Below, piece after piece: positions 2,643-52,075 of a stretch of DNA of 64,000 nucleotides. A program made the translations under genes and the position numbers. The notes below the pieces were generated by a model. It was given only the letters and a program-made list of their open reading frames with translations, did no database searches and was not told where the DNA came from. The first letter of the stretch is position 1. Every line of letters begins with the position of its first letter. Source of the DNA: a virus (taxonomy: Duplodnaviria; Caudoviricetes); the IMG/VR virus record IMGVR_UViG_3300028888_000115, positions 11,458 to 75,457 of that record; one strand, given 5' to 3'.

Positions 2643-3473
2643 ATGACATTCGACTTGCAGAACGGCGACTGCCTGCAATTGCTGAAAAAGATACCGGATA
2701 AGAGCGTCAGTATGATTCTTGCAGATTTACCTTTCGGAACGACGAAGGCGCACTGGGACCATCCGGTCCCGTTAGACAAGCTCTGGAAGCAATACGAGAG
2801 AATCATCAAGGACAACGGCGTGATTGCTTTGTGGGCGCAGTCCCCGTTCGACAAAACTCTCGCGTGCAGCAACATGAAGCTCTACCGGTATGAGTGGATC
2901 ATTCAGAAGACAAGGCCAACCGGCTTCCTGAATGCAAAGAAAATGCCGATGAAGGCGCATGAAAATGTCTTGATCTTCTACAAGTCGCTTCCAACGTATC
3001 ATCCTCAGATGACACACGGGCACGAGAGAAAGGTTTCAACGGCTTACCAGAAGCGAAACAGCAAGAAGACGGAATGCTACGGCGACTATGGATTGACTAC
3101 CTACGACAGTACGGACCGGTACCCTCTGGATGTCCTGAAATTCAAATGGGACACGCAGACGAGCAAAGGTCACAGTGCACAAAAGCCGGTAGCCGCGTGT
3201 GAATACTTCATCAGGACATATACAGACCCGGGAGATACGGTTTTGGATAACGTGATGGGCTACGGTTCTACCGCGATTGCAGCATACAACACGGGACGAA
3301 ACTTTATCGGGATGGAACTGGACAAGGAAATCTTCAACAGCGCATTGCTCAGAATATCGATACAGACAGGGAAAACAATCAAGGAACTTACAGGGGAGGT
3401 ACAGAAGAGTGAAAGAGAAAATGCAGGAAGCAAAGGAGCAGGTGAGGCTGTTCTGGATATGCGCCAAGTATGA
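2643..3473 (+). CDS. N4/N6 DNA methyltransferase (beta class)
   Basis: ADLPFG, HSAQKP, VLDNVMGYGST. Confidence 0.88.
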   Translation: MTFDLQNGDCLQLLKKIPDKSVSMILADLPFGTTKAHWDHPVPLDKLWKQYERIIKDNGVIALWAQSPFDKTLACSNMKLYRYEWIIQKTRPTGFLNAKKMPMKAHENVLIFYKSLPTYHPQMTHGHERKVSTAYQKRNSKKTECYGDYGLTTYDSTDRYPLDVLKFKWDTQTSKGHSAQKPVAACEYFIRTYTDPGDTVLDNVMGYGSTAIAAYNTGRNFIGMELDKEIFNSALLRISIQTGKTIKELTGEVQKSERENAGSKGAGEAVLDMRQV

Positions 3474-5481: not shown

Positions 5482-5964
5482 ATGTACAAGAGTCAGGCTG
5501 ATGCGGTCAAAGAATGGCTGCAGGCATATCTGAAGGGCGTAAAGAAAGTCGACGACATGCTGGAACGACTCCGCACAATCCAAGCAAGGATGAAGAGCGT
5601 CGGCGCACAGGAGTTATCAGATATGCCGAGACCACCGAGCGCTCCAAAGGACAGAATGGCCGAGTACGTTGTCCAATGTGAGTCTTTGGAGCTTGCGATC
5701 AAGAAAGAATCACACGAATTGGAATTGTGCAGGCAGAACATCATGGACCTGACCGGACAACTCAAGAAACCGGATGCCTGCACCATGATCCGGTACAGGT
5801 ACCTCTATGGGTACGAGTGGTCCGAGATTATGGCGAAGCTCTATAGCGAACGAAAAGATCTCACAGAAAAAGAAAACGCCTATCGGCGTAAGATGTACCG
5901 GCTGCACGAATCGGCACTGAAGGAGATGGCGAAGCTGTGGAACAAGAGCGAAAAATCGAGCTGA
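5482..5964 (+). CDS. RinA/ArpU/DUF1492-like late transcriptional activator
   Basis: Coiled coil then IRYRYLYGYEWSEI sigma4-like HTH; position at end of replication/modification block. Confidence 0.7.
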   Translation: MYKSQADAVKEWLQAYLKGVKKVDDMLERLRTIQARMKSVGAQELSDMPRPPSAPKDRMAEYVVQCESLELAIKKESHELELCRQNIMDLTGQLKKPDACTMIRYRYLYGYEWSEIMAKLYSERKDLTEKENAYRRKMYRLHESALKEMAKLWNKSEKSS

Positions 5965-6278
5965 GGAACACACTTTTCTGTTTGGAAGGCGATAACGTAT
6001 ACTTTCGTGGCCTTGACGCCGGTCGGCAGTGGGAAGGCTATGAGTGCCCGTTGTTCAACTTCTGGAATGCGAAAACAGCAGCGCGGTACATCTCAAATTC
6101 GAGCGTCGAGGTCTCTTTCGACAAAGAGCAAGGTGCGTTTATCGTATCCAAGCGCGGAGATCCGAACAAATACCTGCTGAGGATGTACAAGATCGAAAAG
6201 GAGGTCTATGTCGACTTCGGCGGTACAGGAAGATGGAAGAAAATTGAGAAGGAAACAAAAGGGGAGGAGCAGAAATGA
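5937..6278 (+). CDS. hypothetical protein
   Basis: ORF. Confidence 0.6.
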   Translation: MEQERKIELRNTLFCLEGDNVYFRGLDAGRQWEGYECPLFNFWNAKTAARYISNSSVEVSFDKEQGAFIVSKRGDPNKYLLRMYKIEKEVYVDFGGTGRWKKIEKETKGEEQK

Positions 6279-6775
6279 GAGTAACATCCGCAGAGGCGAA
6301 CAAGATCCTCAGAACGAAGCAGGATGAACTGAATGCTTTGAAAGCTGTGGAAAACAAAAGCGCGGTCTTCGTCGCGGCGACGACCGAGGATGTCGAGGCG
6401 GCGAGACCGGAGTACGACATCAAATCGGTGCAGGAGAAGATTGTAAACGCGCAGGCCGAGATCCGGAAACTGAAGCACGCAATCAATCTGTTCAATGTGA
6501 GCCACAAGCCGGAAGGGTTTGACATGACGGTCGACGAAATGCTGATCTATATCCCGCAGCTTACCAGCATGAAAGGCAAATATCAAGGCATGGCAAGCAG
6601 GCTTCCGAAAACAAGGCGGGAATCCGGATACAGCAGAAGCGGCCTGATCGAGTATGAGTATGCCAACTATGATCCGGCTTTTGCACAAGAGCAGCTTGAC
6701 CGGATAACCGACGAGCTTTCCAGAGCGCAACTGGCTTTGGACAAGCTCAATACGACGGAAACCTTCGAGATCTGA
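6275..6775 (+). CDS. conserved coiled-coil protein (DIP1984-like family)
   Basis: TSAEANK...KLKHAINLFN...MLIYIPQL...LDKLN; resembles a conserved Firmicutes family I recall near RNA-repair genes. Confidence 0.6.
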   Translation: MRVTSAEANKILRTKQDELNALKAVENKSAVFVAATTEDVEAARPEYDIKSVQEKIVNAQAEIRKLKHAINLFNVSHKPEGFDMTVDEMLIYIPQLTSMKGKYQGMASRLPKTRRESGYSRSGLIEYEYANYDPAFAQEQLDRITDELSRAQLALDKLNTTETFEI

Positions 6776-6791
6776 TTTGAAGTATATTCCG

Positions 6792-6938
6792 GCAGCACTG
6801 TTTTCAATGAAAGTAATTCTTGGTTATTAGGGTTCAAGGTTGTTGTTTTTTGGTTATTCCTCTTTGTTATCGGTTGACGTTTATGTTCAAGGTACAAGAA
6901 GAAGAAAATTCTTAACAGAACGTCTTTTACAGTGCTGC
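6792..6938 (+). ncRNA. putative structured RNA with GUU-repeat loop
   Basis: Perfect 10-bp stem GCAGCACTGT (6792-6801) / ACAGTGCTGC (6929-6938); inner stem TTCTTG/CAAGAA; 72-nt G/T-rich loop with 10 GTT. Confidence 0.55.
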
Positions 6939-37010: not shown

Positions 37011-37095
37011 GTGCCTGTGGTGGAACTGGTATTCACATCCGATTTAAGATCGGACGCCAAAAGGATTGAGAGTTCAAATCTCTCCGGGCACACCA
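37011..37095 (+). tRNA. tRNA-Leu(TAA)
   Basis: Cloverleaf, TCCGA-TTTAAGA-TCGGA, variable arm, encoded CCA. Confidence 0.92.
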
Positions 37096-37098
37096 CGC

Positions 37099-37175
37099 GC
37101 TTCCGTGCTGCAACCGGTAGACAGGGGCGGCTCAAACCCGTCTGTTTCCGAGTTCGAATCTCGGCGGAAGCACCA
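37099..37175 (+). tRNA. tRNA-Leu(CAA) with short variable loop
   Basis: GCTTCCG/CGGAAGC, GGCGG-CTCAAAC-CCGTC, 5-nt variable loop, A73, CCA. Confidence 0.85.
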
Positions 37176-38778: not shown

Positions 38779-39807
38779 TTGGAGATTTGTGAGGTGATAG
38801 CTACGAAGAAAGGAAAAGAGGTCCCGGTGATCCGGGACATGACGGAAGAGCAGACAAGGGAAATGTTCTATCGATGCGAGCCAATACTGATCGGATATGG
38901 CGGAAGCATCGCTTACGGGACCAATCTCCCGACCTCGGACGTGGATATTCGCGGGATCTACATGAATCCTCTGGATGAGTTTATCGGATGCCGTCCTGTA
39001 TCGGAGCAGTACTGCCCATCGGGAACGGATATCACAATCTACAGCCTGAAGAAAATGATGCATCTGCTTTTGCAGTGCAATCCGAACGTGATTGAAATTC
39101 TCGGGCTGAGGCCGGAGCACTACCTGTACAAAACCGAAGAAGGCCAGATGTTGGTGGACAACGCGGAAATCTTTCTGTCCAAGCACGCGGCTTACACCTT
39201 CGGAAACTATGCCAAGTCGCAGTTGAACCGCCTGATGAACAAGTCCGGACGGGCAAACGATCAGGTGGTCTCGAACGAGGTCAGGTCAATTTCCAAAACG
39301 CTGAGCTCTATCCGCAAAAGGGAAGGCCTGCAAAACATCCGAATCGACGAGGTGGACGGCGTGCCGGTTCTGACCATCAATGAGTCCATGCCGATTGACA
39401 AGTTTGCCAGCATAACCAACGAGATCAACAATGTCCACTTGGACTACAAGTCCAGTTCCCGCAACCGCAAGGCCGTGGAGCACAGCAAACTGGCAAAGCA
39501 CATGATGCATCTGCTGCGTCTGTACATGATGGGCATTGACATCTTGGAATCCCACAAGATCGTCACATATCGCGAGGCGGAGCACGACCTTCTCATGGAC
39601 ATCCGCAACGGGAAGTACCTGAAAGAAGACAAGACCACGCCGACTGCTGAGTTCGACGAGCTTCTGGCGGATTACACGGCGCGGTTTGAAAAGGCGGTGG
39701 AGGAGACGACGCTTCCAAAGCGACCGGACACGGATAAGGCCAATGAACTGATGATGCGGCTTGTCCGCATGCACTATGACGGACTGTCAGGAGGAACGAC
39801 ACGATGA
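38779..39807 (+). CDS. RlaP-like (Pol-beta superfamily) nucleotidyltransferase
   Basis: GGSIAYGTNLPTSDVDIRG, NPNVIEIL, KHMMHLLRL; start uncertain. Confidence 0.85.
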   Translation: MEICEVIATKKGKEVPVIRDMTEEQTREMFYRCEPILIGYGGSIAYGTNLPTSDVDIRGIYMNPLDEFIGCRPVSEQYCPSGTDITIYSLKKMMHLLLQCNPNVIEILGLRPEHYLYKTEEGQMLVDNAEIFLSKHAAYTFGNYAKSQLNRLMNKSGRANDQVVSNEVRSISKTLSSIRKREGLQNIRIDEVDGVPVLTINESMPIDKFASITNEINNVHLDYKSSSRNRKAVEHSKLAKHMMHLLRLYMMGIDILESHKIVTYREAEHDLLMDIRNGKYLKEDKTTPTAEFDELLADYTARFEKAVEETTLPKRPDTDKANELMMRLVRMHYDGLSGGTTR

Positions 39808-40445
39808 CGGATATTGATAAGTTGAAAGAAGAATACAAGAATGTCAGAGCCGTGTTCGGAGCTTTCAAGTGCCGTTTGGACGCGGCAATTCAGAAAGCGG
39901 AGTGTATCGCCAACGCGGAAGAAATCGCCTACCAGAAAGGATATGAAAGCGGCAAAGCTGAGGCAGAAATCCAATTGCTCAATGAAAACGGCGAATGGGC
40001 CAAAAAGCTGAAGCAGACAGCCTATCAGAAAGGCACCCGGGACGGAAACGTCGAAGGCGCTCTGGCGGCGTGGGATATTGCCACGATCATCGTGACGCCG
40101 GAGGAAGACGGCGGCACCATTCCGACAAAGGACCTGAGAGAACTGTTCGACGTCGAATGTGACTATGAGGTTTTCAAACGGTATACTCCGAGCGAGGCTC
40201 TGGCAAAGCTTCAGGAGTACGACAAACAGATCCGGGTCGGAGATGAGGTCATTGCGGAAGGTGACGCAAAGTATATTGTCACGCAGATCAAGAACAATGA
40301 CGGATGCAAAACATACTCCGGCATCAATTCCGATGGAGAGACGTTCTGCTATTTTGAGACGGACGGCGTAACCAAGACAGGAAAACACGTGGATCTCTCC
40401 AAAATGTTTTCTTCCATCCGGGAGGAATCAGAAAAGAATGAATGA
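39804..40445 (+). CDS. hypothetical protein
   Basis: AYQKG repeats; IRVGDEV. Confidence 0.7.
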   Translation: MTDIDKLKEEYKNVRAVFGAFKCRLDAAIQKAECIANAEEIAYQKGYESGKAEAEIQLLNENGEWAKKLKQTAYQKGTRDGNVEGALAAWDIATIIVTPEEDGGTIPTKDLRELFDVECDYEVFKRYTPSEALAKLQEYDKQIRVGDEVIAEGDAKYIVTQIKNNDGCKTYSGINSDGETFCYFETDGVTKTGKHVDLSKMFSSIREESEKNE

Positions 40446-41364
40446 GAATTACCGGAATCTGTTTCGCGCGATTTCGGCGAACGACCTTCCCAAAACAAGG
40501 GCCTATGCTCAGGTAATTCTCCGGACTAACAGCACGGCAAAAGACGCCCAGTTCTGCGAAAATATTTTGCAGAAGATGGATGATCAGGATAAGGCTGGAC
40601 CGGAGATCCCGTATAACCTGAAGGGGGTTATTCGGACCAGCAGTTCGCCGTTCGGATTTCATGCGGACAGGTATTACCTTTCGCCGCGCGAGAAAACGGT
40701 CATCGAACACATCAAGAAGATGTATCAGGTGTCCGGGAAGCTCGCTGAGCTTGGGATCAGATACACCAACGCGGTTCTCCTGCACGGAGAATCCGGAACC
40801 GGTAAGACTACCTTCGCGCAGTACGCTGCAATCTTGCTTGGGCTTCCGTTCTTCTATGTGAGCATCACACAACTGATCGACTCCTACATGGGCAAGACGG
40901 GTCAGAACTTGGAGAATGTCTTCGAGTTCGCCAACTCGCAGCCGTGTGTCCTCGTCCTGGACGAGATTGATCAGATCGGCTCCAAAAGACGGGATGACGG
41001 CGGTGTATCCGGAGAGATAAAGCGCGTGCTCATTACGATTTTGCAGAACATGGACAGACTCCCGAATCATGTTGTTCTGGTCGCCGCGACAAACCGCCCG
41101 GACTCATTGGATGATGCTCTTGTTCGCCGCTTTGCGGTCAAGCACGAAATCACCCGCCTGAATTTGGAAGAAAGCGAGGCTTTTGTCAGTCGGTATATGT
41201 CAAGTCTCGGCTTGGGATGGGCAGGCTCCGTCAGAGCGTTCCTTTTGTCTTTGGGTGCAGACAAATGGAACTACACACCGGCTGAGCTTTCCCAGCATTT
41301 AAATGAAAAGATTGCCGAGGCGATCTACACGGGCGAGCAGGACCCGACGATTTATCTGAATTGA
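40438..41364 (+). CDS. AAA+ ATPase
   Basis: GESGTGKT, VLDEID, AATNRPDSLDDALVRRF. Confidence 0.92.
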   Translation: MNENYRNLFRAISANDLPKTRAYAQVILRTNSTAKDAQFCENILQKMDDQDKAGPEIPYNLKGVIRTSSSPFGFHADRYYLSPREKTVIEHIKKMYQVSGKLAELGIRYTNAVLLHGESGTGKTTFAQYAAILLGLPFFYVSITQLIDSYMGKTGQNLENVFEFANSQPCVLVLDEIDQIGSKRRDDGGVSGEIKRVLITILQNMDRLPNHVVLVAATNRPDSLDDALVRRFAVKHEITRLNLEESEAFVSRYMSSLGLGWAGSVRAFLLSLGADKWNYTPAELSQHLNEKIAEAIYTGEQDPTIYLN

Positions 41365-43599: not shown

Positions 43600-43675
43600 T
43601 GCGGCGTGGTAGCAGTGGTAGCTCGCTGCCCTCATAAGGCAGAGGTCGTTGGTTCGAATCCAACCGCCGTAACCA
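43600..43675 (+). tRNA. tRNA(CAT) (Met or Ile2)
   Basis: CTGCC-CTCATAA-GGCAG; lacks the initiator GGG/CCC pairs; CCA. Confidence 0.9.
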
Positions 43676-43826
43676 AAGGTCGGGTAGCTCCCGAATGATC
43701 TCAGTAGCTTGTCGGTGTGCCTGAGAGAGAATAACAAAGGCCTTTCTGAAAACTCCTTGCGCGTGAACGGTCGTGCGCAGGCTGGGGCGCGAGTGAGATA
43801 ATCTAAGAAGGGAAACCGCACAATAC

Positions 43827-43903
43827 AGCCCTGTGGTGCAGTTGGTGAACACGTCGGCCTGTCACGCCGAAGATCGCGGGTTCAAGTCCCGTCAGGGTTG
43901 CCA
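43827..43903 (+). tRNA. tRNA-Asp(GTC)
   Basis: Cloverleaf, G73, CCA. Confidence 0.93.
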
Positions 43904-44097
43904 ATACGTCTCATCTGAGCGTGGCACAACACAGCCTGTTGACGCAAGGGCTGCACGGGCGAAATCAGATGCCGGGGCGGGGTTACATCCCACGGAGCGT
44001 CACCGTGCTCGCAGAAACGGACTCGGTATGTCCCAAACCATCGTGAGAGTATACCTTGGATGGCACAAAGCGTTTAGAAGTGCCCGATCAGCCTTCT

Positions 44098-44182
44098 GCG
44101 CGTATCCCGGACGGTCCGGGACCAAGGACTGTGAAGAGCGTGTTCGATTCCGCGAACTCGAAGGTTCGACTCCTGACAGTGC
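44098..44182 (+). ncRNA. degenerate tRNA-like element containing CTGTGAA (His-type loop)
   Basis: 6-bp D-like hairpin, V-like hairpin, AGG-TTCGACT-CCT T-arm; no anticodon stem, no CCA. Confidence 0.35.
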
Positions 44183-44209
44183 TGGTGCAATATCAGTCCT
44201 TTTTCATAC

Positions 44210-44298
44210 GCGGAATGATGCCGTCCGGCGACGGCTGCGGCCTTGAAAACCGTGGGTAGCAGAGATGCTATGGGGGTCGGCACCTCCGTTCCGCGCCA
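44210..44298 (+). tRNA. tRNA-Ser(TGA), non-canonical 8/4 fold
   Basis: 8-bp acceptor GCGGAATG/CGTTCCGC; D-stem GCCGTC/GACGGC with CGGC loop; T-arm GGGG-GTCGGCA-CCTC; G73, CCA. Confidence 0.85.
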
Positions 44299-44301
44299 GA
44301 T

Positions 44302-44391
44302 GCAGTGTTGCCAGAGCGGTAATGGGCCCGCTTGGAAAGCGGAAGCCAGGTTGAGAAGCCTGCGAAGGTTCGATCCCTTCACGCTGCGCCA
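44302..44391 (+). tRNA. tRNA-Ser(GGA)
   Basis: Canonical class II cloverleaf, CCA. Confidence 0.92.
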
Positions 44392-44394
44392 GAT

Positions 44395-44484
44395 GCTTCG
44401 TTATGCCGGACGGCTCCGGTCCTTGCCTCGAAAGCAGAGGGTGCCCGATGAGGGCATGGGGGTCGGCACCTCAGCGAAGCGCCA
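44395..44484 (+). tRNA. tRNA-Ser(CGA), non-canonical 8/4 fold
   Basis: 8-bp acceptor GCTTCGTT/AGCGAAGC; D-stem GCCGGA/TCCGGT with CGGC loop; same T-arm; CCA. Confidence 0.85.
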
Positions 44485-44487
44485 CAT

Positions 44488-44562
44488 AGAGCTGTCGTCT
44501 AAGGGTAAGACACGAGGCTTTGACCCTCGTATGTGAAAGTTCGAGTCTTTCCGGCTCCGCCA
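44488..44562 (+). tRNA. tRNA-Gln(TTG)
   Basis: CGAGG-CTTTGAC-CCTCG; CCA. Confidence 0.92.
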
Positions 44563-44566
44563 GTAT

Positions 44567-44652
44567 GGAAGAGTGGCCGAGTTGGTCAATGGCGGCGGAC
44601 TGTAAATCCGTTGGCACTGCCTACACAGGTTCGAATCCTGTCTCTTCCACCA
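44567..44652 (+). tRNA. tRNA-Tyr(GTA)
   Basis: GCGGA-CTGTAAA-TCCGT; variable arm; CCA. Confidence 0.93.
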
Positions 44653-44655
44653 CAA

Positions 44656-44732
44656 GGTCCCATCGACTAACAGGCAAGGTCACCAGCCTTTCACGCTGGC
44701 AATGCTCGGTTCAAATCCGGCTGGGATCACCA
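44656..44732 (+). tRNA. tRNA-Glu(TTC)
   Basis: CCAGC-CTTTCAC-GCTGG; CCA. Confidence 0.92.
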
Positions 44733-44735
44733 CAT

Positions 44736-44811
44736 GGGGTCGTAGCTCAGCTGGGAGAGCGCCTGCCTTGCAAGCAGGAGGCAGAGGGTCCGAGCCCCTC
44801 CGATTCCACCA
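44736..44811 (+). tRNA. tRNA-Ala(TGC)
   Basis: G3:U70; CCTGC-CTTGCAA-GCAGG; CCA. Confidence 0.92.
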
Positions 44812-44814
44812 CAA

Positions 44815-44891
44815 GGTCTCTTCGTCTAAAAGGATAGGACGCAAGCCTCTCAAGCTTGTAATGCTGAGTTCAAGTCTCGCAGAGATCACCA
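44815..44891 (+). tRNA. tRNA-Glu(CTC)
   Basis: CAAGC-CTCTCAA-GCTTG; CCA. Confidence 0.92.
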
Positions 44892-45013
44892 GCACATCTG
44901 ACCGCCGAGGACGCGTACTCGGGAGATACCCGCAGATAGACGGAGAAGAAGCGGGGCTGAGCGGCACGGTGCAGACCCGACACCCGCAGGGTCCATGCCG
45001 CAAGCGGGTATAT

Positions 45014-45090
45014 GGCTCATTAGCTCAGTTGGTTAGAGCGCATGGCTGTTAACCATGATGTCGAAAGTTCGAGTCTTTCATGAGCCTCCA
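45014..45090 (+). tRNA. tRNA-Asn(GTT)
   Basis: CATGG-CTGTTAA-CCATG; U73; CCA. Confidence 0.92.
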
Positions 45091-45387
45091 CCAAGTGGCT
45101 GTGCTGCAGTGTTTGCATCGAAGCACCTCCTTTCGTAAATCCACACGTCTGCTGGCCGTGCTTGCGCTACGGTTGTTGGATGAAACAAAGCAGAGCCGTG
45201 AACCGGAACAACGTGCGTACTGGGAACGCACGCCGGGAAATCGGCACAATACAGAACTGTTGGCTTTGATTCCTGACTTGTACCGAAGGCTTCGGTCCCA
45301 CCGAGGCGATTGATGTAGGTAGCATCTGGGGCTCATGAAAGCCGCAGGCCCGATTAAAGCTCCGCGAGACGGGCTATCGGGCAATAC

Positions 45388-45462
45388 AGGTTGGTGGTGT
45401 AATGGCAACATGCCGGTCTCCAAAACCGTGCGATCAGGGTTCGAGTCCTTGCCTTCCTGCCA
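45388..45462 (+). tRNA. tRNA-Trp(CCA)
   Basis: CCGGT-CTCCAAA-ACCGT; G73; CCA. Confidence 0.9.
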
Positions 45463-45473
45463 AAAAAGAATAC

Positions 45474-45562
45474 GGAGCGTTGGCCGAGTTGGTAAGGCAC
45501 CGGATTGCTAATCCGTGGTTAGGGGTAACTCTACGAATGTTCGAGTCATTCACGTTCCGCCA
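45474..45562 (+). tRNA. tRNA-Ser(GCT)
   Basis: CCGGA-TTGCTAA-TCCGT; variable arm; CCA. Confidence 0.92.
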
Positions 45563-45985
45563 TTTCCGGGTAGCTGCCGGATGATGTCAGAGCAGATGCA
45601 CCAGAGGCCTGACAGAGAATATGAATGGTAGACCGACCAAAGCGGGGCGGAAGCCCTGCACAAGGCCTATGGCGGTACTACAAGTGAGGGCAACGTCGAA
45701 GGAACGCGACTGATTTGTGCGGGATGGCAAACCCACAAAAAAGAACAAACACGCCCCGCTGCGGGTGACAGCACCAAAGGAAGCTGAGACGTCCGGTTTC
45801 CGGGTCTATCACTTAAAGCGGGGAATAGGCCGAATAAAACAGGAACTTGGCCGTAGGGCAGTGAAAGTGCGAATGCGTTGTAGCTGGCTGATGATGGCAG
45901 ACAGAGCAAACGGCTGTAACGACAGGACGTGAGAATTAGCCGTCTACTGAAAGGGAAAGAAATCCCATCAAAGCTGTTTGCTCAC
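45563..45985 (+). ncRNA. large structured ncRNA, GOLLD-like (tentative)
   Basis: About 420 nt directly 3' of a tRNA, no credible gene; segments GCGGGT..CCAAAGGA, GTAGGG..GTGAAAG and terminal GGG..AATCCC..AAAGC resemble the GOLLD 3' domain as I recall it. Confidence 0.45.
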
Positions 45986-46052
45986 AATTCTATATCGGAT
46001 ACCGTCATGCCGAAAGGTGTGGCGGTATCTTTGCTTTGGGGAGAGAGCAGAA

Positions 46053-46301
46053 ATGAGTAAGTCGAAGGATATTCGCACGCTCTGCGCCTCCTGCAGAGCA
46101 GAATACGAGGAAGCCGGATTTGAACTGATCAAAGTCTGGGTGAAAAACAAAGAGGAATGTGACTGGTGCCGCGTGAGACTGGGGTGGACCTATGAAATAC
46201 GCGGAAAGAGACAACATCTTCGTAGCTCAGATGGCAAGAGCGCTGAATACTCCCAATTCAGGGGTCGCGAGTTCAAGTCTCGCCGAAGATGGACGCGATA
46301 G
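46053..46301 (+). CDS. small zinc-binding protein
   Basis: LCASC...CDWC; 3' end overlaps the tRNA-like element. Confidence 0.55.
   Translation: MSKSKDIRTLCASCRAEYEEAGFELIKVWVKNKEECDWCRVRLGWTYEIRGKRQHLRSSDGKSAEYSQFRGREFKSRRRWTR
46216..46291 (+). tRNA. tRNA-like element with 9-nt anticodon loop (TACTCCCAA), no CCA
   Basis: ATCTTCG/CGAAGAT acceptor; normal D and T arms; CTGAA/TTCAG stem. Confidence 0.65.
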
Positions 46302-50103: not shown

Positions 50104-50136
50104 ATTGGCGTCAGCAGATACAATGAGGTGACAAAG

Positions 50137-51330
50137 ATGGAGAGACATGTAGCAGCCTACAAGAGGCGCAGAGCACAAAGGCTCTGTGAGCGATACGGAT
50201 TCAGATATGACTCGTTGAATTTAGATTCAGGACTTGGCTGGCTGTTTGGTCTTGCCACGGATCTTGGAATCAAGACAAAGGGTATGAAGATTCCTGAAAT
50301 CTTCAAGGCTGTGAATGAGAAGCGTGCCCAGAAAGGGCTTGAACCTGTTGGACACAAGGGAAATGTTTCCGGAAAGAAGGGTTCATTCAAGCAGACAAGC
50401 CGGAAGGGACCGGAGGTCAATCAGTCCCTCGTGTCCAATGCGAAGGAGGAAGCCAAAAAGAATATGGCGACCTCCTACAAAACTGCGAGCGGAGCTAATT
50501 TCCCGAAGCCAAAGGCTGGCGCGAAGTTTGACAACAGTGTTATGTCCGGCGTTGAAAAGAGCGCAAAGGATCTCGGAAAAGAAAAGGAATTTGACGACAT
50601 CGTGAAGAGCCTGAAACCGACCGATTATGTCTATATGAAAGACCCCGTGACGGGTGATCAGGTTGCTTCCGTTCCTGGCTTGGCTCAGCGTTTCGATAAG
50701 ACAATGACCGGGCGGTCAGAAGAGTGCCAGAGGATCTACGACCAGAAAATCAAGAAGGGCGCACAGATCTCGAAAGACATGATTGATGCAGTCAACGGAA
50801 TCGGGTGCCGTCTGTCCGGACTGGAGAACTGCTTCAAGGGCGGCGACTCCACGTCAAGGAAGATTTCTACCAAACGCAGCGAGGCAGAAGCAAGAGGAAA
50901 AGAAACCAAGACGGACGAAGGATACACTGCTGGTTTTGGTGATATCATCCGATTCACGGCCTTGTGTGACCACGATGACATCGCAGAAACGGTGACAAAG
51001 CTGGAAAGCGCTATGCAGAAGAAGGGCTATGAGCTCAACGAAAGAGACAATAAGTGGGTTACCGGAGACGGCAGCTACAAAGGCGTGCATGTTGAATTCA
51101 TTTCTCCGACAGGCGAGCGTTTTGAGGTTCAGGTACATTCTACTGTCGCTCTGGCATTCAAAAACAAGGGTCACAGATACTACGACAATGCACGCGTGGA
51201 AGACGTGAGCACTGCGAATGGCAAGAAGCGCCACGATGCCGCCATTGAGAAATGCAAGAGCATCTGGAAGACTTGCCCGATCCCCAAAGGAATTGAGGAC
51301 CTGAAACCGATCCCCAAAAAGAAACGGTAG
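50137..51330 (+). CDS. putative capsid-cargo protein 3 with C-terminal RelA/SpoT (toxSAS-like) synthetase domain
   Basis: HVAAYKRRRAQRL..FRYDS leader; FKGGDSTSRK, GDIIRF, SYKGVH, FEVQVH, GHRYYD. Confidence 0.82.
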   Translation: MERHVAAYKRRRAQRLCERYGFRYDSLNLDSGLGWLFGLATDLGIKTKGMKIPEIFKAVNEKRAQKGLEPVGHKGNVSGKKGSFKQTSRKGPEVNQSLVSNAKEEAKKNMATSYKTASGANFPKPKAGAKFDNSVMSGVEKSAKDLGKEKEFDDIVKSLKPTDYVYMKDPVTGDQVASVPGLAQRFDKTMTGRSEECQRIYDQKIKKGAQISKDMIDAVNGIGCRLSGLENCFKGGDSTSRKISTKRSEAEARGKETKTDEGYTAGFGDIIRFTALCDHDDIAETVTKLESAMQKKGYELNERDNKWVTGDGSYKGVHVEFISPTGERFEVQVHSTVALAFKNKGHRYYDNARVEDVSTANGKKRHDAAIEKCKSIWKTCPIPKGIEDLKPIPKKKR

Positions 51331-51655: not shown

Positions 51656-52075
51656 TTGATTTCGATGGTCTGGCAGGCAGAGGCCTTTGCGAAAGAAAGG
51701 CACTTTGGACAGTTTGACCGCGCCGGAGTTCCGTATATCGAGCATCCGCGTGCGGTTGCGGCGAAGGTGGACACGGATACGGAAAAGGTTGTCGCGTTCC
51801 TGCACGACACGGTGGAGGACACCAACACAACGCTGGATGAGATCCGGAACAAGTTTGGCACTGAGGTCGCGGACGCGGTTGAATGCCTGACTCACAAAAA
51901 GGGTGTTCCGTATATGGAATACGTCAAGGGAATCAAAACGAACGACCTTGCGCGGAGGGTGAAACTGGCGGACCTGAGCCACAACATGGATCTGAGCCGT
52001 CTGCCGAAGGTGACCGATGCAGACCTGAAGCGCGTGGAGAAATATAAGGCTGCTTACGACTTTCTGGTCGAGTAA
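51656..52075 (+). CDS. small alarmone hydrolase (Mesh1/SAH-type HD protein)
   Basis: H.GQFDRAGVPYIEHP, AFLHDTVEDT, VKLADLSHN. Confidence 0.9.
   Translation: MISMVWQAEAFAKERHFGQFDRAGVPYIEHPRAVAAKVDTDTEKVVAFLHDTVEDTNTTLDEIRNKFGTEVADAVECLTHKKGVPYMEYVKGIKTNDLARRVKLADLSHNMDLSRLPKVTDADLKRVEKYKAAYDFLVE

Follow-up and report, generated by a model that had tools for sequence, protein, structure and literature searches.

Introduction

The (8/4) tRNA-Ser class was found as false positives of a search for tRNA-Sec (Mukai et al., 2017, PMC5389517). In these allo-tRNAs, the 12-bp acceptor branch is split 8/4 or 9/3, the long D stem with its tetraloop is similar to that of tRNA-Sec, and a long variable (V) arm is present together with G73 or U73 (PMC5389517). 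The (8/4) tRNA-Ser was reported in phages, proteobacteria and rumen Clostridia, and an (8/4) tRNA-His was located beside it in alpha-proteobacterial phage clusters (PMC5389517). E. coli processed and serylated the 8/4 and 9/3 allo-tRNAs, its EF-Tu and ribosomes used them, and the 8/4 species inserted serine there; some allo-tRNAs were inactive in E. coli, and many allo-tRNA(UAU) species were suggested to be non-translational (Mukai et al., 2017, PMC5389517).

The DNA analysed here, called the window, is a whole stretch of 64 kb from a 75-kb IMG/VR virus record that is 80% complete. The phage tRNA array in the window contains two genes, termed A and B, which by their sequence and predicted fold are members of the published (8/4) tRNA-Ser/allo-tRNA class, known since 2017. 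The assignment was based on the 12-bp branch of 8 + 4 bp, the D arm, the V arm with G73 and the serine anticodons. Furthermore, the D loop CGGC ends in C in both genes, which is the Y20 feature of the class. The original prediction had stated that such tRNAs were described in phages and Clostridia, and the paper of Mukai et al. (2017, PMC5389517) bears this out. The tRNA features of the window are as follows.

43600..46292, plus strand: phage tRNA array with 12 of the 14 scanner-detected tRNAs and genes A and B
44210..44298, plus strand: gene A, (8/4) tRNA-Ser, anticodon TGA (44244-44246), from the sequence and covariance model R1
44302..44391, plus strand: canonical 7/5 tRNA-Ser (GGA), between A and B, perfect 7/5 fold, found by ARAGORN and RF00005 (49.3 bits)
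44395..44484, plus strand: gene B, (8/4) tRNA-Ser, anticodon CGA (44429-44431), from the sequence, covariance model R1 and the cloverleaf scan
45474..45562, plus strand: canonical 7/5 tRNA-Ser (GCT), perfect 7/5 fold, found by ARAGORN and Rfam (54 bits)
37011-37175: two Leu tRNAs, outside the array

Results

Sequence and Fold of the Two Genes

The original prediction described a Ser(TGA) and a Ser(CGA) gene with different acceptor sequences and one architecture, and both parts of this description were seen in the sequence. The 8-bp acceptor stem, the AT linker, the 6-bp D stem with CGGC, the long V arm and the 4-bp T stem were all read directly. The acceptor stem of gene A is GCGGAAUG/CGUUCCGC, with 8 bp including one U.G pair. 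It is followed by an AU linker, the D stem GCCGUC/GACGGC with the loop CGGC, the anticodon loop CUUGAAA, a V arm of 18 nt and the T arm GGGG-GUCGGCA-CCUC; G73 is at 44295 and the encoded CCA at 44296-44298. The acceptor stem of gene B is GCUUCGUU/AGCGAAGC, also with 8 bp including one U.G pair. Its AU linker, D stem GCCGGA/UCCGGU with the loop CGGC, anticodon loop CUCGAAA and V arm of 19 nt follow the same plan, its T arm is identical to that of gene A, and G73 and the encoded CCA are located at 44481 and 44482-44484, respectively. The T loop of both genes is non-standard, with G54/G58 instead of the usual T54/A58.

U33 and A37 are present in the 7-nt anticodon loops of both genes. The anticodon stem contains one C.A mismatch per gene, at 31:39 in A and at 27:43 in B. 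Position 27:43 was unpaired in 11 of the 19 homologues of alignment A2, and the mismatch of gene B is thus a family trait and not damage. The published class is also described with an anticodon stem that exceeds the canonical length; a sixth anticodon-stem pair can be drawn in both genes, and this extra pair did not recur in the family. Minimum-free-energy folding of gene A alone preferred a slipped structure with a 7-bp acceptor and a 6-bp T hairpin. The single-sequence folding z-scores of -1.1 (A) and -1.5 (B) were unremarkable and not discriminating. The viral contigs L030 and L045 match the window at 98% identity over ~7 kb, with zero substitutions in the two genes; the unchanged state of both genes across three phage contigs that are ~2% divergent is weak evidence of constraint.

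The arrangement given in the original prediction also held: A and B flank the canonical Ser(GGA), the addition of Ser(GCT) gives four Ser tRNAs, and the 7/5 folds were confirmed by the scan. The long non-coding spacers of the array are located at 43904-44208, 45091-45387 and 45563-46053. The motif GGGTAGCT..CCG.ATGAT.TCAG occurred three times in non-tRNA spacers of the array (43677-43710, 45563-45600 and 45879-45912). The spacer segment 45267-45335 had a DUF3800-VIII RNA match below threshold (36.7 bits against a gathering score of 40.2, E = 2.4e-4). A promoter scan of the tRNA array gave nothing above chance.

Detection of the 8/4 Genes

ARAGORN called 14 tRNAs in the 64-kb window and missed both A and B, leaving two tRNA-sized gaps, one on each side of Ser(GGA) at 44302-44391. 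The whole virus record had 14 matches to the Rfam tRNA model RF00005, every one inside the window, and neither gene A nor gene B was matched. The tRNA-Sec model RF01852 matched gene A with 49.0 bits against a gathering score of 47, and gene B had no Rfam match of any kind even at E<=10. The earlier claim that scanners overlook such genes was hence well founded, since ARAGORN and RF00005 missed both genes and the tRNA-Sec model just caught A. In total, 2 of the 16 tRNAs of the window were missed by the scanners.

A covariance model, R1, was built from A2, an alignment of 19 phage homologues. R1 scored gene A with 92.1 bits and gene B with 85.7 bits (E ~1e-20 for the 64-kb window), and nothing else convincing was found over the window. 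A cloverleaf scan for 8/4, 9/3 and 7/5 folds was also carried out on both strands of the region 36.5-47 kb, where A and B were the sole 8/4 folds.

Covariation and Conserved Positions in the Family

The 15-nt T arm common to A and B was present in 97 IMG/VR stretches. About half of these were chance matches inside coding sequence, and the rest were homologous tRNAs, in which the acceptor, D, anticodon and V stems differed in sequence and kept their pairing. Homologues with the exact T arm of A and B were carried by ~45 viral contigs. In A2, the 8/4 structure was paired in 97.6% of the cells, whereas the control values were 68% after shuffling and 39-46% with the partners slid. Changes on both sides were observed in 21 of 28 pairs. 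All six pairs of the D stem covaried and were 100% paired with 0 unpaired cells, and V-arm stems of 5 bp also covaried. The eighth acceptor pair was paired in all 19 homologues by three pair types (UA 11, GC 7, AU 1), whereas the rival fifth T pair of the 7/5 fold was paired in 11 of 19 and showed no covariation.

The application of R1 to the viral loci gave 69 matches, of which 52 were distinct, including members with other T arms. The analysis was restricted to 49 of the 52, as the other three were 7/5 tRNAs with a different identity. The eighth acceptor pair was formed in 49/49 of them with five pair types, and the rival fifth T pair in 23/49. The T stem was fixed by the search seed and is uninformative alone; it was still 4 bp in the members with other T arms. 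The D-loop GG (G18-G19) and the T-loop U55-C56, by which the tRNA elbow is held together, were invariant across the family, as was A37; A38 was found in 44/49 and G73 in 46/49, and the second T-stem pair was G.U in 45/49. The T-loop positions 54/58 covaried among the 49 sequences (G/G 38, U/A 8, A/U 2, U/U 1). The anticodons were serine throughout (TGA 30, CGA 10, GCT 4, GGA 3, AGA 2; n = 49). Judged from the sequences, these conserved positions together with the serine anticodons are the signature of working serine tRNAs and not of decayed copies.

Several variants were observed beside these positions. C33 replaced the near-universal U in five distinct 8/4 Ser tRNAs, one per contig, with the loop CCUGAAA in L008, L034, L043 and L092 and CCAGAAA in L002. 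Two 8/4 Ser tRNAs had an AGA anticodon with A34. The G54/G58 T loop was also found in 7/5 tRNAs of other phages, as GUCGGUA and GUCGGCA; these were Lys(TTT) (L092:5530-5600) and Thr(TGT) (L016:1725-1792), so the loop is not tied to the 8/4 shape.

Occurrence in Other Phages and in Bacteria

The isolated 200-kb Xanthomonas phage X1 (L149, OQ427096) carries 8/4 tRNA-Ser genes in gaps between its annotated genes.

773-861: 8/4 tRNA-Ser (GCT)
2471-2556: 8/4 tRNA-Ser (CGA)
2566-2649: 8/4 tRNA-Ser (TGA)
3083-3166: 8/4 tRNA-Ser (GGA)

None of the four is annotated in GenBank and three of the four were missed by ARAGORN, which likewise missed most 8/4 members in the viral loci. In X1 and in L016, L014 and L047, three or all four Ser isoacceptors are 8/4 (GGA and/or GCT besides TGA/CGA); the lineage of the window mixes 8/4 (TGA, CGA) and 7/5 (GGA, GCT) genes. 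The 8/4 shape is not isoacceptor-specific in general. ARAGORN also called amber-reading (CTA) tRNAs in several large phage contigs with 8/4 Ser tRNAs (L007:4030-4103, L008:3622-3695 and L134:4470-4567).

The bacterial scan used one genome per species and an anchor of the T arm plus the anticodon loop, and it gave 50 loci. Nine of these were true, eight in Clostridia MAGs and one in an Acidimicrobiaceae MAG. A bacterial counterpart was examined in a Ruminococcaceae MAG, here G001.

L168 (G001:C1) 5542-6833: chromosomal array of 15 tRNAs in G001

The order of this array is Gln(TTG), Ser(CGA, 8/4), Ser(GGA, 7/5), Ser(TGA, 8/4), Ser(GCT, 7/5) and Leu, and its neighbours are hydrolase, dehydrogenase, amidohydrolase and peptidase genes. 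The window segment 44205-44394, which holds gene A and Ser(GGA), was collinear with it at 78% over 194 nt. All four canonical Ser tRNAs (TGA, CGA, GGA, GCT) are encoded elsewhere in G001, along with further duplicates; the 8/4-bearing array is therefore a redundant accessory set. R1 matches were found in at least 2 of the 121 sampled genomes of the family of G001 under strict filters.

Two explanations of this counterpart were tried and rejected. The array of G001 was not taken for a prophage, since phage genes were absent from its two flanks (~13 kb and 5 kb) and the terminase of the window had no counterpart on that contig. The idea that the phage copies a host whose normal tRNA-Ser is 8/4 did not agree with the canonical Ser(TGA), (CGA), (GGA) and (GCT) of G001, the one genome examined, or with R1 matches in 2/121 under strict filters that may lose some. 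The picture suggested by the sequences is a mobile pool of tRNA arrays common to gut and rumen Clostridia and their phages, which is probably the source of A and B, and the collinear Ser block indicates that phages and chromosomes have exchanged tRNA arrays. The Ser block in common with G001 also points to a probable Clostridia (Ruminococcaceae-type) host of this phage. Comparison at the DNA level with isolated phages gave short tRNA-length matches only, and the terminase was at most 52% identical to that of any isolate, so that the host is not nameable from isolates.

Neighbouring Putative Toxin and RNA-Repair Genes

Residues 192-395 of the ORF at 50128-51330 matched PDB 8vx3 'SaSAS' (E = 1.3e-7), and this C-terminal half of the ORF also matched 'head morphogenesis' PHROGs. 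An HD_4 hydrolase gene (51656-52075) is located downstream, with a 92-aa ORF between them. On these matches, the segment 50128-52075 looks like a MuF-type toxin module. On the other side of the array, an RlaP 'RNA repair pathway' nucleotidyltransferase gene (38779-39807; Pfam E = 4.5e-24, phrog_388 E = 3e-56) and an AAA ATPase gene (40438-41364) are located just downstream of the two Leu tRNAs, and the two genes may form an RNA-repair module in this tRNA-rich phage.

Discussion

The covariation-backed 8/4 cloverleaf, the elbow nucleotides, G73, the V arm, CCA and the serine anticodons were all observed for genes A and B. On this basis, A and B, as members of the published (8/4) tRNA-Ser/allo-tRNA class, are probably functional serine tRNA genes, and ordinary serine decoding of UCA and UCG is their most likely role. 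SerRS recognises its tRNAs by a combination of the long variable arm, G73 and acceptor pairs, and the host SerRS would charge A and B through the variable arm and G73. SerRS was also reported to accept the 8/5, 9/4, 8/4 and 9/3 shapes (Mukai et al., PMC5389517). RNase P, EF-Tu and the ribosome would handle A and B like ordinary tRNAs, given that the combined acceptor/T helix, whose length such factors measure, is unchanged at 12 bp. As in tRNA-Sec, the shift of the junction is probably balanced by the longer D stem and its 4-nt loop. The two tRNAs are expected to read UCA and UCG, with a probably wider reach over the UCN box for the TGA species. With the addition of the 7/5 Ser(GGA) and Ser(GCT), the phage would possess a complete serine-decoding set that is independent of the host pool. 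A SerRS of the phage itself, which might have co-evolved with the 8/4 shape, was considered and rejected, since the class II core domain PF00587 was absent from the virus record (80% complete). Codon supply is a plausible rationale for A and B. UCA and UCG accounted for 12% and 14% of the phage Ser codons, respectively, according to rough gene calls; these are the less-used UCN codons, and hence codon supply alone is a weak rationale.

The reason why the 8/4 shape is kept was also considered. One explanation is that the shape makes A and B poor substrates for a host toxin directed at tRNA-Ser (a nucleotidyltransferase of the MenT/AbiEii type, or a nuclease that acts on the anticodon or the acceptor) or for a SAS-like toxin of the phage, so that serine decoding survives the inactivation of the host tRNA-Ser. 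It is compatible with ordinary decoding, and we regard it as unlikely. Phage tRNAs that resist tRNA-targeting defences were documented for other tRNAs, in the reports on PARIS (PMC11464382) and on retron effectors (PMC11555353). The 8/4 Ser tRNAs are frequent in phage arrays, as judged from the ~45 viral contigs with the exact T arm, and rare in bacteria, with at least 2 of 121 genomes in one family. Moreover, G001 has a canonical Ser set besides its 8/4 array, which makes the 8/4 tRNAs structurally distinct from the housekeeping tRNA-Ser, and the phage also carries the RlaP RNA-repair-type nucleotidyltransferase. However, it is by the long variable arm that MenT3 picks tRNA-Ser, and the tRNA is then extended at its CCA end (PMC11162799); both of these elements are retained in A and B. 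Only two of the four Ser isoacceptors of the window are 8/4, and Ser(GGA) and Ser(GCT) would still be exposed to a general attack on tRNA-Ser. An equivalent alternating block of 8/4 and 7/5 Ser genes is held by the chromosome of G001 among metabolic genes, and the 8/4 shape is thus not a phage-specific alteration. The original prediction had also named a toxSAS of the phage itself, and a SAS-like domain is indeed present in the ORF at 50128-51330 by the match to 8vx3; this match, however, is to a small alarmone synthetase. For the presumed Clostridia hosts, we know of no defence system that is specific to tRNA-Ser.

A broader proposal, to which we give little credence, is that 8/4 and G54/G58 are kept on the U34/C34 decoders of UCN in a mobile tRNA block because they make these decoders orthogonal to something that acts on ordinary tRNA-Ser. 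The agent could be an enzyme of modification or repair, or else a toxin, of the phage or of a defence system, that recognises the acceptor/D-arm geometry. If the proposal is true, serine decoding would have a protected backup in phages and accessory arrays.

It is very improbable that A and B are non-translational tRNA-like RNAs, such as decoys, regulatory RNAs or decaying pseudogenes. The anticodon-stem mismatch in each gene, the non-standard G54/G58 T loop and the inactivity of some allo-tRNAs in E. coli (PMC5389517) might be read in this way, but the serine anticodons throughout the family, the covariation of all helices with near-complete pairing, the encoded CCA, the conserved G73 and elbow nucleotides, and the position of A and B in register within a compact tRNA array argue against it. 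A selenocysteine-type tRNA for recoding was suggested by the RF01852 match of gene A (49.0 bits against a gathering score of 47) and by the Sec-like 6-bp D stem with its tetraloop, but this identity can hardly be maintained and was rejected, given the anticodons TGA/CGA instead of TCA, the 12-bp instead of 13-bp branch, no SelA in the virus record (80% complete), gene B without any RF01852 match, and the fact that Mukai et al. met the 8/4 class as tRNA-Sec false positives (PMC5389517).

The findings matter mainly for annotation, since scanners miss the 8/4 shape and the tRNA sets of phages and some bacteria are undercounted; the missed tRNAs distort analyses of codon usage and of the tRNA complement. 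R1 and its alignment offer a clean means of finding the (8/4) tRNA-Ser family, and, with 8/4 and 7/5 Ser genes mixed in a single array, the phage offers a natural system that is convenient for testing the two shapes side by side.

Comparison With Known Systems

The resistance of T5 tRNA-Lys to PARIS and of phage tRNAs to retron effectors concerns, like A and B, phage-encoded tRNAs that are unlike the host isoacceptor (PMC11464382, PMC11555353). The target and the resistance determinant were shown experimentally in those cases (PMC11464382, PMC11555353). The V arm and CCA read by MenT3 are unchanged in A and B.

The canonical 7/5 tRNA-Ser of the window (GGA, GCT) has a long V arm, G73, CCA and serine anticodons in common with A and B, and all of them belong to one array. 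In contrast, the acceptor/T junction of A and B is shifted by one base pair, their D arm has 6 bp and a 4-nt loop whereas that of the 7/5 tRNA-Ser has 3-4 bp and a large loop, and their T loop has G54/G58 whereas that of the 7/5 tRNA-Ser has T54/A58. The bacterial tRNA-Sec (RF01852, 8/5) resembles A and B in the 8-bp acceptor, the 6-bp D stem with a 4-nt loop, the long V arm and G73, and it is charged by SerRS, as would be expected for A and B. The T stem is 5 bp and the branch 13 bp in tRNA-Sec, whereas they are 4 bp and 12 bp in A and B; moreover, the anticodon of tRNA-Sec is TCA (UCA reading UGA), whereas those of A and B are TGA and CGA.

We could not find in the text of Mukai et al. three details described here, namely the conserved GUCGGCA loop together with the covariation of positions 54 and 58, the mixed 8/4 and 7/5 Ser block and the collinear Ruminococcaceae copy. 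In the alpha-proteobacterial phage clusters of that study, an (8/4) tRNA-His accompanies the (8/4) tRNA-Ser, whereas the cloverleaf scan for 8/4, 9/3 and 7/5 folds found none beside A and B on either strand of 36.5-47 kb. The (8/4) tRNA-Ser of Mukai et al. (2017) has, like A and B, an 8-bp acceptor and a 4-bp T stem that add up to 12 bp, a long D stem with a tetraloop, a long V arm, G73 and serine anticodons. It likewise occurs in phage tRNA clusters and rumen Clostridia and was caught solely by the tRNA-Sec model. There is no essential difference between this class and genes A and B.
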